Source: Deltaproteobacteria bacterium (lineage in GTDB: Bacteria; Myxococcota; Myxococcia; Myxococcales; 40CM-4-68-19). From it: DNA of 64,000 bases. Location: NCBI GenBank assembly GCA_005879315.1, contig VBLC01000035.1, positions 65,686 through 129,685 of the forward strand, written 5' to 3'. The position numbers were made by a program, and so were the translations under genes. This document shows, piece by piece, positions 8,289 to 63,486 of this stretch (position 1 is the first letter of the stretch; every line of letters begins with the position of its first letter). The notes under the pieces were generated by a model that searched no databases, was not told the origin of the DNA, and saw nothing but the letters and a program-made list of their open reading frames with translations.

Positions 8289-9320
8289 TCACCTACCTTC
8301 GCTCTCCTCGTCGCCTTCCTCTTCCGGCTCGGCGGCGCTGGGCGCGCCGGGCGTCGCGCCGGGCTCCTTTCCAAGGAAGCGGAGCGGATCCTTGACCGCA
8401 TGTGGCACGCTCGGCTCCGGTTCCCACTTCGGCGGCTGCAGCCCGGGATTCTTGCCCACGGCTTGCGTGATCAAAACAGAGTGCAGATCGAGCTCGGCAT
8501 TGGGGCCTGCGCCGCTCGAGCCGGCCACCTTGAAGTGACCTTTCAGATCGCAGCCGAGCGGCGCTCCCGTCTCGATGTCGACGAGAATCGTGCCGGAGAT
8601 TGACACCGGCTCCTCCTTCTCCCAGAGCTCGAGCCGCCGCGCGGTGTCCGGATCGGGCGCGTTGCCGGGATATTGCACGGGCGGTAGCTCGCGCTCGTCC
8701 TTCCCGGCGGCGCGCCCTCCCCAGCCGGCCACTCCGTAACGCACGACTCTGCGGCCCTCGGCCACACTCTCGTTGACGACCTTCAACTTGAGACCGCGCC
8801 CCATCCGATCGAAGGTGGGCAAAGCCGACAAAGCCTGCTCGCGGATGCGGCCCACGTCGGTGCGGTCGGTTCGCCGCTTGCGGAAGGGGCCGTAGAGGCT
8901 CTTCACGAAGGCCTCGCCCTTGAGCCAGACCAGCTCGAAGCCCTGGTTGCGATCGTTGGAGAGGCGCACGTCGAAGTCGCCGCCGGGGCCCTGCAGGAGC
9001 GTGGTCTCCTCCGAGAGCGAAACTTCCGAGCCGCCGTCCTTCAATCCCGGTCCGCGGAACCAGGCGAACTGCACGCGCGTCTGCGCCCGGTGGGGACCGA
9101 GCCGCTGCTCGATCTCCGCCTGCGGCATGTGCAGTACCCGGTGCGCGAGCTGCGCGTCTTCCGCTAGCGAGCGCGCGTCGAGCGGTTCCTTCGCCTCGGC
9201 GAGAGTGCCGAGCGGTTCCTCGGGAGAAAAGATCCGCTGCTTGGCAGCCTGGTCCTCGCTCCTCCGGCAGGAGAGCGCAAAGAGAAAAAGGAGGGGAGCG
9301 AGTCGGCGCATGGGACGCAT
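8289..9320 (-). CDS. hypothetical lipoprotein
   Basis: MRPMRRLAPLLFLFALSC is a lipobox-type signal. The acidic C-terminal tail is EPEEEGDEESEGR. No enzymatic motif recognised. Confidence 0.6.
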   Translation of the reverse strand: MRPMRRLAPLLFLFALSCRRSEDQAAKQRIFSPEEPLGTLAEAKEPLDARSLAEDAQLAHRVLHMPQAEIEQRLGPHRAQTRVQFAWFRGPGLKDGGSEVSLSEETTLLQGPGGDFDVRLSNDRNQGFELVWLKGEAFVKSLYGPFRKRRTDRTDVGRIREQALSALPTFDRMGRGLKLKVVNESVAEGRRVVRYGVAGWGGRAAGKDERELPPVQYPGNAPDPDTARRLELWEKEEPVSISGTILVDIETGAPLGCDLKGHFKVAGSSGAGPNAELDLHSVLITQAVGKNPGLQPPKWEPEPSVPHAVKDPLRFLGKEPGATPGAPSAAEPEEEGDEESEGR

Positions 9321-43142: not shown

Positions 43143-43964
43143 TTATCCCGGCTCGGGTCCCGTTGCGATGGGTCGCGACGGGTCGCTGCACCAGTCGCTC
43201 CACGACCCGACATAGAGCCGCGCCGGCGGCAAGCCTGCAATCTCGCGGGCGAGAACATCGTGGCAGGCGGTGACACCGCTGCCGCAGGAGCAGATGACGT
43301 CGTCTCCGTACCTTTTGTACAAATTGTACAAATCGCCGGGCGCGCGGAAACGACCGTCGGTCTCGAGGTTCTTCTGATAGGGAGCGTTGAGCGCTCCCGG
43401 GATGTGCCCGGCGCGGGGATCGAGCGGCTCGGTCTCGCCCCGGTAGCGCTCCGGCGCGCGCGCGTCGAGCAGCACCGACTTCCCGCGCTTCTCCACCTGG
43501 GCTCGGTCGGCCAGCCGCGACTTGTCGAGCCGCAGCTGCCGGAGCGGGGCGGGCTCGACGCGCGGCACCTCCTGCGTCACCGGCAGGCCCGCCTCGAGCC
43601 AGGCCTTGAAGCCTCCGTCGAGCACCGACGCCCTGCCGTGTCCGTGGACGCGCAGCATGAACCAGAGCCGCGCCGCGATCGCCCCACCCGCATCGTCGTA
43701 AACCACTACGTGCGTGTCAGGGAAAACCCCGAGGCGCGAGAGCGTGCCGGCGAACTCCTTCTCACTGGGAAAGGGATGGCGCCCCGGGCCGCCGCGGCGG
43801 GAGAGGTCCTCGTCCAGATCGACGAAGACCGCGCCGGGAATGTGCGACTTCGCGTAGCTGGCCCGGCCGCTCCCGCCCGTCGCCGACCAGCGGGAGTCGA
43901 CGATGCGCACTCCGGGGTGCGCCGAAAGCCAGCGGACATCGACCGTCGCGGCCGTATCCGACAT
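43143..43964 (-). CDS. sseA: thiosulfate/3-mercaptopyruvate sulfurtransferase (tandem rhodanese)
   Basis: ATG 43964 (MSDTAATVDVRWL...). Motifs: GHIPGAV, GHIPGALN, and the active-site loop CGSGVTAC. Confidence 0.85.
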   Translation of the reverse strand: MSDTAATVDVRWLSAHPGVRIVDSRWSATGGSGRASYAKSHIPGAVFVDLDEDLSRRGGPGRHPFPSEKEFAGTLSRLGVFPDTHVVVYDDAGGAIAARLWFMLRVHGHGRASVLDGGFKAWLEAGLPVTQEVPRVEPAPLRQLRLDKSRLADRAQVEKRGKSVLLDARAPERYRGETEPLDPRAGHIPGALNAPYQKNLETDGRFRAPGDLYNLYKRYGDDVICSCGSGVTACHDVLAREIAGLPPARLYVGSWSDWCSDPSRPIATGPEPG

Positions 43965-44017
43965 GGCTCTATTTTTCCCACATCCTTCACTCTTGCACCC
44001 CATGCTATCTTGCACTC

Positions 44018-55493: not shown

Positions 55494-58059
<2,566 letters not shown>

Positions 58060-59676: not shown

Positions 59677-60606
59677 TCACCGCCGGCGCAGGATGAGCGC
59701 GCGGAAGAGCTGGGCGAAACCGCCGGACGCAGTCGCATCGGGCCAGTGCGGCGAGCCCAGAAGGGGCAATTCCAGCGAAAGGAGGCGCGAGAGGAGCGGA
59801 TGGCGGCGGCGCACCTCCTCGGCGGGTGCGGCGAAGACCTCGCAGGAAGTGAAACGGCGCAGGCGCCAGAGGTCGGTGTAGCTCGCACAGCGGACCGAGA
59901 GGTCGGCTCCGAGAAGCTCGTGCAGCGGGAGCTGCTCGACGGCGAGGCCTGCGCCCTCGGCAGCGTCGCGGAGCTGGCGGAAGTCGATCGACCACTCGAG
60001 GTGCTCGCCCTGGCCGAAGGCGGCGAGCAGCCGGATCGGCGCGGGATCGAAGTCCCCGCCGAATTCGCTGAGGACGGCTGCGCCGCCGCTGGAGAGGACG
60101 CGCGCGATCTCGAGGACGAGCTCGATGGCGCCGGCGTTGCGGCCGCGCTCGGCCGGGAGATCGGCCATCATCTCGTTGGCGAGGATGAGGCCGTCGAAGG
60201 ATCTCGTCCTCAAGGGGAGCGCGACCGCGTCGGCGCGCAGGCCTTGCCAGCGGCGGTGGGCGCCGCCCGGTTGCGAAGGCTCGAGCAGCCGTCGTCGCTG
60301 TGCGCGCAGCAGCGCCGGCGAGAGATCGAGCGAGGTCCAGCGCGACTGCGTGAACGGCCCGGCGTCGCCGCGCCAGGCAGCCTCGGCCAGGTGTCCTGCG
60401 CCTCCGCCGATCTCGAGCACGCCGCGTTGTCCCGGCCCGATGCCGCGGCTGCCGATCCCCTGGAGGAGCGCCTCGCCATACCGGCGGCCGCCCAGCGCGG
60501 GATGGGGAAGGCGCAAGAGGTGCGAGATGGTGCACTCCACCTCGTCGAACCGCCGCCGCGCCGGGAGGCGGTCGAGGCGGTGGTGCGCTCGGGTGGCGTC
60601 CTCCAC
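59677..60606 (-). CDS. class I SAM-dependent methyltransferase (architecture reminiscent of DUF185/MidA)
   Basis: Real part of track ORF 59677..61122. Motif I: VLEIGGGAGHL. LILANEMMADLP resembles the NE..DA.P motif of MidA-type enzymes. The start is uncertain (GTG 60606 proposed). Confidence 0.6.
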   Translation of the reverse strand: MEDATRAHHRLDRLPARRRFDEVECTISHLLRLPHPALGGRRYGEALLQGIGSRGIGPGQRGVLEIGGGAGHLAEAAWRGDAGPFTQSRWTSLDLSPALLRAQRRRLLEPSQPGGAHRRWQGLRADAVALPLRTRSFDGLILANEMMADLPAERGRNAGAIELVLEIARVLSSGGAAVLSEFGGDFDPAPIRLLAAFGQGEHLEWSIDFRQLRDAAEGAGLAVEQLPLHELLGADLSVRCASYTDLWRLRRFTSCEVFAAPAEEVRRRHPLLSRLLSLELPLLGSPHWPDATASGGFAQLFRALILRRR

Positions 60607-60647
60607 TCGGCCGGGAGTTGTCGCGCGGCCGAGGGGTGGCGGGCAAG

Positions 60648-61019
60648 TCAGACTGCCGGCGGCGTGATGCGCAGCGTCCCTGAGGATGGCTGCGTGAGCG
60701 TCAGCGGATCGAGCCCCGCCTGCGCCGGGCCGTTCAGGACGCTGCCCGACAGAGTGAACTGCGAGCCGTGGCAGGGGCAGCGGAAGCCGTCGGTTTTGGG
60801 GATCACCGTGCATCCCTGGTGCGGGCAGGCCCCGCTGAGGGCGCTGTAGGCGCCTGCCAGCCGGACGACGATGATCGGATAGGGATAGCCGGCCGCTTTG
60901 CCTTCGACGACGCCGCCATCCTGCTGCAGCGAGGGATAGTCCGCGATGTTGATGGTCACGGCGCCATCCTGCAGCGCGCGATAGGTGCCGTCGCCGGGCA
61001 GGAGCTGCATGCGCACCAC
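60648..61019 (-). CDS. Rieske [2Fe-2S] domain protein (bc/b6f PetA-like cluster motifs)
   Basis: 123-aa track ORF with CPHQGC ... CPCHGSQF. The same frame stays open upstream to 61259 and contains a second Rieske motif pair (see next feature). Confidence 0.75.
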   Translation of the reverse strand: MVRMQLLPGDGTYRALQDGAVTINIADYPSLQQDGGVVEGKAAGYPYPIIVVRLAGAYSALSGACPHQGCTVIPKTDGFRCPCHGSQFTLSGSVLNGPAQAGLDPLTLTQPSSGTLRITPPAV

Positions 61020-61246
61020 GCCGCGGGCGTCGACCGCGGGCTGAAGCGCGGTCAGGTCCTGGTTGGCCGGCGGATTGATGACTCGCCCGTCGCTCGCGAA
61101 GCGCGAGCCGTGGCAAGGGCACTCGACTTCCTCGTCACTCCCGACCCAGGTCAGGTCGCATCCGGCGTGCGGGCAGTCGGCATTGAAGGCGAGATAGCGA
61201 CGGCGGCGCGTTGGGCCAGCTGGCGGCGGGAGAGGTCGTCGGCCAT
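61020..61246 (-). pseudogene. N-terminally truncated extra Rieske module plus out-of-frame Tat-like start
   Basis: In frame with the downstream Rieske ORF: ...RYLAFNADCPHAGCDLTWVGSDEEVECPCHGSRFASDGRV... There is no ATG/GTG/TTG upstream in that frame. ATG 61246 (GGAG 6 nt upstream) opens a different frame, MADDLSRRQLAQRAAVA..., which stops after 31 codons. Confidence 0.5.
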
Positions 61247-61259
61247 TTCGCGCTCCGGG

Positions 61260-61835
61260 CTAGAAGGTCAAGACGGTGAATCCGGCGAAAGTGGCCACCA
61301 GCGCCGTGTAGCCGATGATCTGATGCGCGAGAGCGAAGTCGCGCTGGGAGAGGCGGCCCTCGCGCGATCCGGTGACGATGCCGAGCACCACCTCTGCGGC
61401 CATCGCCGCCGTCGCGGTGGCCATCGCCGCCTTGTGCAGCGTGGCGGTGTCGAGGCGGAGTGGCTTTTCGAGCGGGCTTGGCGCAAAGACCGCGAGGGCG
61501 CCGGTGGCGGCGAAGATGGCGGCGCTGCCGTAGGCGGTCCAGCGGTGCCACTGGTGGAAGTTGCCGGTGTCGCCGCGGCCGCCATACTTGTCCATGTAGT
61601 CGAGCTGCCCGAAGATGACCGCCAGGCTCATGCTGCCGAGCGTGAGAAATCCGCCCAGCTGGTGCAGCTGCAGCATGCGCCGCCGCAGCGAGAGCTTTGC
61701 CTCCAGCTCCTTCTGCCGCTGAAGAGCGGCAGGGTCTGGCGCGGCCTCCTTGGGCAAGAGCTCGAAGTCCTCGGAGGGCGGCTGCTCTTGCGGCGCCCCC
61801 TGCAAAAGCGAGATGGCGAGCGCGAGAGCGAGCAT
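61260..61835 (-). CDS. membrane protein with four helices each carrying a histidine (possible di-heme b-type protein)
   Basis: 191 aa. N-terminal hydrophobic signal-like segment, then helices beginning LHQLGG..., HQWHRW..., LHKAAM..., LAHQIIG... Adjacent to yceI-like and Rieske genes. Confidence 0.6.
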   Translation of the reverse strand: MLALALAISLLQGAPQEQPPSEDFELLPKEAAPDPAALQRQKELEAKLSLRRRMLQLHQLGGFLTLGSMSLAVIFGQLDYMDKYGGRGDTGNFHQWHRWTAYGSAAIFAATGALAVFAPSPLEKPLRLDTATLHKAAMATATAAMAAEVVLGIVTGSREGRLSQRDFALAHQIIGYTALVATFAGFTVLTF

Positions 61836-61860
61836 CAGTTCCTCTGCGCGAGCGGCACTC

Positions 61861-62388
61861 TCACTTCGCCGGCCCGAAGATGAGGTCGCCGCTGATCGTC
61901 ATCCGGTCGTCGACCTTGATGAAGAGGAGCTCGGGGCGCTCGACCTTGAGCGCCTCGAGGCTGACCGGAAAGGAAAAGGTGGCGTGCACGCCGTCCTTTG
62001 CAGGCTCGAGCTTGACGGGCACTTCGATCGGCTGCTTCTCGCCGTTCAGCTCCACGGTGCCTCGCAGCGTAGCCGAGAGCGGAGCGCCGAGAGGCCAGGT
62101 CAGGCCGCTCATCGTGCCCTTGACGGTCGCGTACGGGTGCGCGGCCTCGTGCGTGGCCTCGCGCATGTGCGCGTCGCGGTTCGAGTTGCCGCTGTCGAAT
62201 GAGGCCACTTTGGCGCGCACCTGGACCTTGGTCGATCCGCCCTCCTCGATCAGCGCGCGACCCTCGATCTGCCTGGTGGTGCCGACGACCTCATGCAGCT
62301 TGTGCACCACCGTATAGCGCAGGGCGCCCTCGCGCACCTCGAGCATTTGCCCGGCGGCGAGGAGCAGTGCGAGGGCGAAGGAGGACAT
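61861..62388 (-). CDS. YceI-like (polyisoprenoid-binding) periplasmic protein
   Basis: ATG 62388 (MSSFALALLLAAG...). FDSGNSNRDAHMRE is the hallmark YceI motif. About 175 aa. Confidence 0.75.
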   Translation of the reverse strand: MSSFALALLLAAGQMLEVREGALRYTVVHKLHEVVGTTRQIEGRALIEEGGSTKVQVRAKVASFDSGNSNRDAHMREATHEAAHPYATVKGTMSGLTWPLGAPLSATLRGTVELNGEKQPIEVPVKLEPAKDGVHATFSFPVSLEALKVERPELLFIKVDDRMTISGDLIFGPAK

Positions 62389-62398
62389 TCGACCGATG

Positions 62399-62887
62399 TC
62401 AGAGCAGAAAGCGGATCGCGAAGAGAAAGTCGAGCAGGAAGTGCGGCTCGGGAGCCAGCGCGAGCGCCGGCGCCACTTCCAGGCCGAGCGCGAGCGGCGC
62501 TTGCTTGAGGAGCAACTCCACTCCGAAGGGCGCGCGGGCGCCGGCATAGACGCCGCCCGAGCAGCGGTCGGTCAGGAACCAGGGGCTGCAGGGACTCTCG
62601 AAGGCGCCGACGAACGGCCCGGCCCCCATGTAGACCTCGAGGTCTACGGTGCGGTGGCGCCCGCGGGCTTGCGTCCACAGCCAGTCGAAGCCGAAGCGGA
62701 GGCCCGGGCCGTAGAGAAAGGCGAAATTGATGTCGAAGGCCTGCGTGCTCCCGACGTACTGCTTGAAGGAGAGCCCGAAGGGGTTGCCCACGGTGAAGCC
62801 GAGGGAGGAGCGCGCCGGCCGATCGGCCTGCGTCTCGCGCGCGAGTGCGCCGCTGCTCAGCGCCAGAGCGAGGAGAGCAAATTTCAG
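62399..62887 (-). CDS. small secreted/outer-membrane beta-rich protein, apparent CTG start
   Basis: The track ORF starts at GTG 62791, but the frame is open upstream and encodes a clear signal peptide, KFALLALALSSGALA/RETQA. The only initiation candidate is CTG 62887, overlapping the def stop (CTGA). Confidence 0.5.
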   Translation of the reverse strand: MKFALLALALSSGALARETQADRPARSSLGFTVGNPFGLSFKQYVGSTQAFDINFAFLYGPGLRFGFDWLWTQARGRHRTVDLEVYMGAGPFVGAFESPCSPWFLTDRCSGGVYAGARAPFGVELLLKQAPLALGLEVAPALALAPEPHFLLDFLFAIRFLL

Positions 62888-63486
62888 AGGGCGGTGGCCT
62901 CGCCCTTGCGCTCGGCTTCGCGCTGGGCCTTGTGCTTCTTCAGGCGGCGGCGGATGAGCTCGCGCTTGAGCGCGCTGAGGTGGTCGACGAAGAGCTTGCC
63001 CTGCAGGTGGTCCATCTCGTGCTGCACGCAGACGGAGAGGAGTGTGTTGGTCGCCTCCAGCCGGCGGCGCTTTCCGTCGCGGCCGGTGAACTCGACGACG
63101 ATGTGGCCGAAGCGGGTGACCTCTTCGTACTCGTCAGGGATGGAGAGGCAGCCCTCGGTGTAGACGAACTCGCCCTCGCCCAGCTTGAGGACCGGATCGA
63201 TCAGCCAGAAGAGGCCCTCGCCCTTCTTCTTCGGAGGCTCACTTGCCCGCCGTTGAGTTCCTTCGCCTTCCGACTCCGGCACGTTAGCCCGCTGCTCGAC
63301 GTCGATGGCGATGACGTTCTGCAGGACGCCGATCTGCGGCGCAGCCAGGCCGACGCCGTTGGCGTCGTACATCGTCTCGGCCATGTCATCGCAGAGCTTG
63401 CGTACGGCCGCGTCGACGTCGCCGACGGGCTTGCCCTTCTGCTTCAGGCGCGGGTCGGGCCAGATGATGATCTCGCGCAGTGCCAT
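62884..63486 (-). CDS. def: peptide deformylase
   Basis: 200 aa. Motifs: GVGLAAPQIG, EGCLSIP, HEMDHLQG. It carries a charged insertion between motifs 1 and 2 and a basic C-terminal tail. Confidence 0.9.
   Translation of the reverse strand: MALREIIIWPDPRLKQKGKPVGDVDAAVRKLCDDMAETMYDANGVGLAAPQIGVLQNVIAIDVEQRANVPESEGEGTQRRASEPPKKKGEGLFWLIDPVLKLGEGEFVYTEGCLSIPDEYEEVTRFGHIVVEFTGRDGKRRRLEATNTLLSVCVQHEMDHLQGKLFVDHLSALKRELIRRRLKKHKAQREAERKGEATAL

Follow-up and report, generated by a model that had tools for sequence, protein, structure and literature searches.

A population-fixed 217-nt deletion in a gene for a predicted double-Rieske lipoprotein of an uncultured Myxococcota

How do two Rieske iron-sulfur modules come to lie in a long open frame that lacks a start codon at its head, next to a well-placed start that opens a different frame and stops after 31 codons? 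The question is raised by positions 60648-61262 of a 64,000-nt stretch of contig VBLC01000035.1 (here called the window, that is, the whole stretch of DNA that was analysed), from the metagenome-assembled genome (MAG) of a Deltaproteobacteria bacterium. The region follows directly on TM191, a gene encoding a protein with four transmembrane segments (4-TM). Coordinates given without a contig name are those of the window, in which the double-Rieske region, TM191 and a YceI-like gene all lie on the minus strand. We find that 217 nt have been deleted from this locus, and the region is very probably an ordinary pseudogene of a double-Rieske lipoprotein gene, formed by that deletion.

Structure of the locus and the missing segment

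A preliminary description of the region had reported that, after the TAG at 61262-61260 that ends the 4-TM gene, the same frame stays open for 203 codons and contains two sets of Rieske motifs. Both statements proved correct: the frame ends at the TGA at 60650-60648 and encodes CPHAGC (61175-61158) with CPCH (61121-61110), followed by CPHQGC (60827-60810) with CPCH (60779-60768). Pfam analysis gave two matches to the Rieske family PF00355 in this frame (E = 3.1e-24, far beyond chance), and each module carries the two ligand boxes C-x-H ... C-x-x-H. The DNA segments encoding the two CPCHGS motifs, said to be nearly identical, match at 21 of 24 nt (88%). The start codon reported as missing is indeed missing, the first ATG, GTG or TTG being the GTG at 61019, yet a codon-usage scan places the beginning of the coding signal at 61196. 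The start described as resembling that of a twin-arginine translocation (Tat) substrate was also recovered, with a GGAG sequence (61255-61252) followed after 6 nt by the ATG at 61246; it opens MADDLSRRQLAQRAAVAISPSMPTARTPDAT*, 31 codons in another frame that include the twin-arginine motif SRRQLAQ. This ATG lies 13 nt from the TAG and in frame +1 with respect to the 4-TM gene. A promoter and terminator scan of 60400-63000 yielded nothing useful.

We then searched the 203-aa frame against 5.8 billion protein clusters, which returned a large family of proteins of 260-280 aa. The best match, P0001 (271 aa, 84% identical), reads MADDLSRRQLVQRVAV-LGAALAGC-...-GRYLAFNADCPHAGC...; the Tat stub of the window corresponds to its residues 1-16, and the open frame resumes at its residue 89/90. 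In L001, the contig encoding P0001, and in a second contig, L002, the gene encodes a single protein of 270-271 aa in the order Tat signal, lipobox cysteine, Rieske domain 1 and Rieske domain 2, and the wider orthologues are likewise single open reading frames (ORFs) of about 260-280 aa. L001 is ∼93% identical in DNA to window positions 62687-55773 and collinear with them except for four clean gaps, the third of which breaks the double-Rieske gene. Because the more distant L002 has all four gap segments, it is the window that carries the derived state. The locus is made up as follows.

61260-61835, minus strand: TM191, an intact 191-aa 4-TM gene (ORF) ending at the TAG at 61262-61260; the identical protein occurs on nine contigs
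61247-61259, minus strand: 13-nt spacer with the Shine-Dalgarno (SD) sequence GGAG at 61255-61252; by comparison with relatives, 1 nt longer than that of L001 (12 nt)
61199-61246, minus strand: retained 5′ end of the double-Rieske gene, from the ATG through the first 16 Tat-signal codons (MADDLSRRQLAQRAAV), aligning to P0001 residues 1-16
61198-61199, no strand: deletion junction, 217 nt missing; the segment is present in L001 (2560-2776) and in L002; 1-nt microhomology
61151-61198, minus strand: out-of-frame continuation of the Tat stub, by translation, through domain-1 DNA to the TGA at 61153-61151
61020-61197, minus strand: remnant of Rieske domain 1 (RYLAFNADCPHAGC...CPCHGSRF...) in frame -1 relative to the ATG, from motifs and Pfam
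60648-61019, minus strand: complete Rieske domain 2, with CPHQGC at 60827-60810 and CPCH at 60779-60768, stop TGA at 60650-60648, from ORF and Pfam

The missing 217 nt correspond to codons 17-88 plus one base (72 codons + 1 nt), and the only microhomology at the 61199|61198 junction is of 1 nt. In the AlphaFold2 (AF2) model of P0001, the deleted residues hold the elements E33-36, E43-47, H52-55, E60-65 and E80-84 of domain 1. As a result, module 1 of the window, which lacks the equivalent of P0001 residues 17-88, does not form a complete beta-sandwich: its cluster-binding half is kept and its N-terminal strands are gone, whereas module 2 is complete. The lipobox lay within the deleted segment, and the signal stub and the remnant of the Rieske domains are in different frames, so that the window copy no longer reads as a Tat lipoprotein. 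The preliminary description had left three explanations side by side, namely an internal deletion or frameshift in an exported double- or single-Rieske protein, a sequence error and a split fusion. The first of them stood, since the orthologues are single ORFs of 270-271 aa with an in-frame Tat signal and the window is the copy without the 217 nt; the other two fell. Nor is the upstream motif region a non-conserved spacer among orthologues, an outcome that the preliminary description had named as refuting its view; the region is conserved coding sequence of Rieske domain 1.

From this comparison, the ancestral gene would have encoded a periplasmic lipoprotein of ∼271 aa with a twin-arginine signal, a lipobox cysteine and two Rieske [2Fe-2S] domains of the bc/b6f type. 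The 217-bp deletion took the last part of the signal peptide, the lipobox and, from the start of domain 1, five secondary-structure elements, and it moved the frame by -1. Because the deletion removed 217 bp and shifted the frame, translation from the SD sequence and the ATG at 61246 would now give a 31-residue junk peptide, and what is left of domain 1, together with the whole of domain 2, has no start codon before the GTG at 61019 and no export signal. The deletion is one of three in the same operon that are fixed in the species-level population.

The split fusion deserves a closer look, given that the frames of TM191 and the Rieske gene coincide in the window, L001 and L002, as they would if a TAG nonsense codon had split an ancestral 4-TM::Rieske protein or were read through. 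Comparison of 15 related loci showed that in all 15 TM191 is closed by a stop codon and the Rieske gene begins with a start of its own and has a separate twin-arginine (RR) motif and lipobox, and a Tat signal and a lipobox make sense only at a free N-terminus. Moreover, the two genes are in different frames in 13 of the 15 loci, with spacers of 7-82 nt, and share a frame only in L001 and L002; other loci (type B, see below) have a double-Rieske gene without any TM191. We therefore give a fusion hardly any credence. In the window, the loss of 217 nt (-1 modulo 3) returns the Rieske remnant to the 4-TM frame, and the shared frame is an arithmetic coincidence of the 13-nt spacer and the deletion.

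Programmed ribosomal frameshifting would be another way of linking the Tat stub to the Rieske frame, as the shift needed is -1 and the two frames overlap over 61246-61151. However, no slippery heptamer of the form X_XXY_YYZ is read in this overlap, in agreement with the preliminary description, and the orthologues, being single-frame, need no shift. A frameshift product would still be without the lipobox and the core strands of domain 1 (five structural elements in the AF2 model), which makes this explanation vanishingly unlikely in comparison with a deletion.

Reality of the deletion and state of the remnant

If the 217-nt gap were a sequencing or assembly artefact, the true genome would carry a clean single ORF. 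In favour of an error, the window comes from a MAG (P0009; TMA29183.1), its deletion in alaS is absent from a 99.8%-identical scaffold, and assemblers break near the CPCHGS repeats. We looked up the exact TM191 protein of the window and found it on nine contigs, of which six, from different samples, were retrieved (L106, L107 and L109 from ENA, L108 and L110 from JGI and L111 from Logan). For all six, identity to the window is 99.3-99.8%, and each shows gaps 1, 2 and 3. A further JGI metagenome contig (L004; Ga0066679) is 99.6% identical to the window, has its own single-nucleotide polymorphisms (SNPs) and shows exactly the same junction; SNP patterns among the same-species contigs define several haplotypes. 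Altogether, the identical junction occurs in eight contigs of 99.3-99.8% identity, each with its own SNPs, from differing samples and assemblers (JGI, ENA with k141 MEGAHIT-style and scaffold assemblies, and Logan), and no repeat that could collapse the assembly graph flanks 61199|61198. In addition, nothing above 84% protein identity among the 5.8 billion protein clusters searched was a full-length homologue, as an intact allele would be. Because the contigs share the junction and no full-length homologue exceeds that identity, the 217-nt deletion is real and fixed in the species-level population, and a sequence error is very improbable.

Assemblers do break at the internal repeat of the double-Rieske gene. 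In L106, a gap of 100 N (8734-8833) falls exactly between the two TGCCACGGCTCGC (CPCHGS) repeats, and L111 ends at the same point (window 61103).

We also considered that clean deletions might pervade the whole window as a scaffold-gap artefact. A codon-usage/Kadane scan of the whole window, used because a GC3 frame plot was too coarse, revealed convincing frame breaks only at the Rieske gene and at alaS, and this idea was dropped.

Is the remnant still expressed? Both NCBI (TMA29183.1, 'Rieske (2Fe-2S) protein') and JGI annotate only the second module, as a protein of 120 aa starting at ATG 61010 (60648-61010). The preliminary description, as part of its split-fusion explanation, had raised the idea of continued expression of the second module from GTG 61019, for which we found no support: no SD sequence is read upstream, there is no export signal and the SNPs lean towards relaxed constraint. 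A partly living remnant would make domain 2, from GTG 61019 or ATG 61010, as a cytoplasmic Rieske ferredoxin of 120-123 aa, which is compatible with the deletion. It would account for the open ORF and intact ligands in all strains, for the agreement of the two annotation pipelines (NCBI and JGI) in calling domain 2, and for a pairwise dN/dS of the remnant of 0.28, well below 1. On the other hand, neither GTG 61019 nor ATG 61010 is preceded by an SD-like sequence, and domain 2, a Rieske domain of the bc type with disulfide cysteines, would need to fold in the cytoplasm with neither Tat export nor a lipid anchor. An open frame is what would be expected of a former coding frame of 70% GC that was inactivated recently, the low dN/dS mostly reflects the time before the deletion and the L001 branch, and population SNPs in the domain-2 module are 1 synonymous to 3 nonsynonymous. 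We consider a living domain 2 unlikely, and the annotated 120-aa protein is probably the mis-annotated tail of a pseudogene.

The selection counts fit recent inactivation. In pairwise comparison with L001, the dN/dS of 0.28 of the remnant stands against 0.10-0.23 in its neighbours, a lean towards relaxation that is not significant. Polarised amino-acid changes number 14 on the window lineage and 8 on the L001 lineage, also without significance, and over the remnant and the stub together the population SNPs number 1 synonymous to 4 nonsynonymous versus 22:11 in the neighbouring genes (Fisher p = 0.069). We infer a loss of function, as well as the order and timing of the deletions.

Some observations weigh against a pseudogene. 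All strains keep the frame open, and neither ligand set nor any part of domain 2 has been lost; no selection test is significant, so the remnant may retain some residual function. The evidence comes wholly from assemblies, and the window assembly may hold errors elsewhere, a further deletion of 86 nt in alaS being absent from a 99.8%-identical scaffold. The region resembles ordinary internal-deletion pseudogenes, with an out-of-frame deletion, a lost N-terminal targeting signal, an open downstream frame, a 3′ part mis-annotated as a short protein and the loss of a linked neighbour gene, and it differs from them in nothing essential. If the region is a pseudogene, the entry '120-aa Rieske (2Fe-2S) protein' would have to be corrected to a pseudogene tail, with the odd frames explained by a real, population-fixed 217-bp deletion. 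The interest of the locus would then lie in what was lost, the double-Rieske family and its partners, and not in how it was lost.

The intact double-Rieske family and its relatives

In a family alignment of 36 members (A2), the RR pair is nearly invariant (at least 90% of sequences), and all 36 have the lipobox Cys24 and the two Cys/His ligand sets without variation; the lipobox of the family is LAGC. Because the RR pair, Cys24 and the two ligand sets are conserved in this way, the intact protein is predicted to be exported by the Tat system as a lipoprotein with two Rieske domains, which show 38% identity when aligned with one another over 112 residues. P0001 scores 16.3 bits with the Tat signal profile TIGR01409, against a cut-off of 16.7, and its AF2 model has a pLDDT of 91.8 and a pTM of 0.82. 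The window locus is orthologous to this family, given its 93% nucleotide identity and collinearity with L001 and a gene order found also in L002, L036, L038 and L042-L044; its copy departs from the single ORF of ∼260-280 aa in consisting of a 31-codon stub and a start-less frame of 203 codons.

Among GTDB species representatives, members of the family are confined to MAGs of uncultured Myxococcales/'Deltaproteobacteria', and one genome often has two paralogues. Two types of locus can be distinguished: type A, with the order def-YceI-g174-TM191-Rieske2x-(g90)-MTase-OMP-alaS, and type B, with g174-Rieske2x and no TM191. Many Myxococcales MAGs (loci L026-L058) carry two double-Rieske paralogues, one in the def...alaS setting with TM191 and the other paired only with g174.

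The closest known counterpart is PetC3 of cyanobacteria, a Rieske lipoprotein that is anchored by its N-terminal cysteine, has no known function and a midpoint potential (Em) of +135 mV, and carries a Phe where high-potential Rieske proteins have a Tyr (PMC12341915, PMC10172866). The structure of Synechocystis PetC3 is PDB 5CXM (Veit et al. 2016, as cited in PMC12341915 and PMC10172866). The double-Rieske family shares with PetC3 a Tat-type signal, a lipobox cysteine, a small Rieske domain of the bc/b6f type, the CPCHGS-x-F sequence and a gene that is not beside a cytochrome b gene. 5CXM is also the best structural match of the P0001 model (E = 1.4e-6); taken per domain, fold matches are headed by PetC3 5CXM, followed by kuste4569 and b6f/bc1 iron-sulfur proteins, and no solved PDB chain covering both Rieske domains was found. 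The nearest relatives from outside Myxococcota are Rieske proteins of the PetC3 type, 146-153 aa long, with a Tat signal, a lipobox and a single domain. Unlike PetC3, which has one domain in ∼130-150 aa, the ancestral protein has two complete Rieske domains per chain, and the family is confined to uncultured Myxococcales-type MAGs, where it is linked to g174 and TM191; the window copy is, in addition, broken. Judged by sequence, the double-Rieske family is apparently a tandem-duplicated PetC3-like variant and not a member of the PetC3 group.

With the b6f/bc1 Rieske subunits (PetC/PetA/QcrA) the family shares the CPHxGC and CPCHGS boxes with their disulfide cysteines, and these subunits give the best sequence-profile matches. 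The scores nevertheless lie far below the equivalog cut-offs (NF045928, 86.2 vs 250; NF010001, 86.2 vs 154; TIGR01416, 65.7 vs 97.4), a lipobox takes the place of the N-terminal transmembrane anchor, and Pfam analysis of the neighbours revealed no cytochrome b or c1/f genes near the double-Rieske loci. AioB, the small subunit of arsenite oxidase, is also a Rieske protein with a Tat signal, and the 8R3A_B profile matches the signal plus domain 1 (E = 3.3e-10). In contrast to AioB, the family scores 44.4 with TIGR02694 against a cut-off of 95.65, has no AioA molybdopterin partner in any locus, and combines two domains with a lipid anchor. Full-text searches of the open-access literature on double or tandem Rieske proteins brought up no account of a polypeptide with two Rieske domains, and the double-Rieske Tat lipoprotein family thus appears to be undescribed so far.

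Partner genes, other deletions and neighbouring features

The double-Rieske gene is not the only one to have been damaged in the window. Besides the 217-nt gap (gap 3), the comparison with L001 gave the following gaps and features.

62397-62389: gap 1, 579 nt (L001 291-869) replaced by 9 nt; removes a gene for a 151-aa DUF4399-like lipoprotein and its upstream spacer
61861-62388, minus strand: intact YceI-like gene, with which the retained part of the cluster begins (Pfam YceI, E = 1.4e-13; 94% identical to L001)
61848|61847: gap 2, 498 nt (L001 1411-1908), in-frame and internal to the 174-aa gene g174
61835-61858, minus strand: relic of g174, 8 codons (GTG...TGA), left by the 498-nt deletion; the intact gene is at L001 1400-1924
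55830|55829: gap 4, 86 nt (L001 8185-8270), a frameshift in alaS

The deletion in g174 leaves intact the TGATG overlap with the start of TM191 and is common to L106-L111. The loss of g174 is almost total; YceI and TM191 are kept, with their starts and the overlap for the translational coupling of TM191. Most relatives have g174 together with the double-Rieske gene, and in 20 related loci it adjoins that gene or sits one gene away. The product of g174 is a lipoprotein that is rich in Cys at its N-terminus. It carries a domain with weak similarity to PSCyt1 and to the cytochrome-c domain at the C-terminus of TIGR03806, and has C-G-x(6-13)-C-H in place of the expected CxxCH. As for the DUF4399-like gene, it is missing in all same-species contigs; L001 and L002 were the only contigs in which it was detected, the more remote type-A loci giving no sign of it.

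The third partner, TM191, has four invariant histidines (H58, H97, H134 and H171), one at each helix start, and a dN/dS of 0.14 versus L001. Modelling gave a confident four-helix structure, Pfam only weak hints (Ferric_reduct, E = 0.0075; PF01292 on one homologue), and a PDB fold search generic helix bundles without a significant match. On the basis of its sequence and model, TM191 may be an unclassified di-haem cytochrome b.

The joint loss of the double-Rieske gene and g174 is consistent with a functional partnership, of which a single event is not proof. We tentatively suggest, as a possibility somewhat short of an even chance, that the lost gene was part of a periplasmic module for electron transfer, so far undescribed, in uncultured soil Myxococcota, made up of a double-Rieske lipoprotein, a PSCyt1-like lipoprotein and a four-His four-helix membrane protein (in one paralogous locus type). 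The ancestral module would be a small membrane/periplasmic redox module, and the partners of the gene suggest a quinone-to-periplasm or periplasmic redox chain in abundant uncultured soil Myxococcales. If this is true, the species would be a natural knock-out in which the linked double-Rieske and cytochrome-c-like genes were lost and the membrane protein and YceI were kept, and the retained TM191 and YceI might serve a pair of paralogues encoded elsewhere in the genome. Within the 64-kb window there is no paralogue of the double-Rieske gene or of g174, and a look-up of protein cluster members revealed no paralogue from the same MAG.

In alaS, the ORF at 55621-58059 (minus strand) shifts frame, and its last ∼115 codons continue in another frame to 55497. 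The missing 86-nt segment is present in L001, in L002 and in the same-species scaffold L106, which is 99.8% identical and has an intact alaS of 882 aa; L106 was the only same-species contig found to span the site, the others stopping short of it. Two same-species contigs begin just downstream of the alaS deletion site. The alaS break of the window points either to damage to an essential gene that is specific to this strain or to an error in the assembly of the MAG. The contrast calls for caution in method: the Rieske deletion is agreed on by eight assemblies, whereas a scaffold of 99.8% identity lacks the alaS deletion of the same window.

Finally, a few minor features were observed. A conserved 90-aa gene, g90 (L002 6856-7128; also the type-A loci L031, L034-L038 and L042), is located in many relatives between the double-Rieske gene and the methyltransferase gene and weakly matches Metal_resist (E = 0.011); it is absent from both L001 and the window. 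In two other ORFs on the minus strand, 43143-44015 and 1017-1859, the codon-usage signal ends before the stop, by 49 codons in one and 25 in the other, and these may be frameshifts or low-complexity tails. The gene after def (62399-62890; L002 3376-3896) encodes a small beta-rich protein whose signal-peptide-like N-terminus ((M)KFALLALALSSGALA) lies upstream of any ATG, GTG or TTG. The window and L002 both have a CTG that overlaps the stop of def (CTCTGA), and this conservation suggests, from the sequence, that the gene uses a CTG start; a flag raised by the scan at 62887 was rejected as a deletion and is probably a CTG start.

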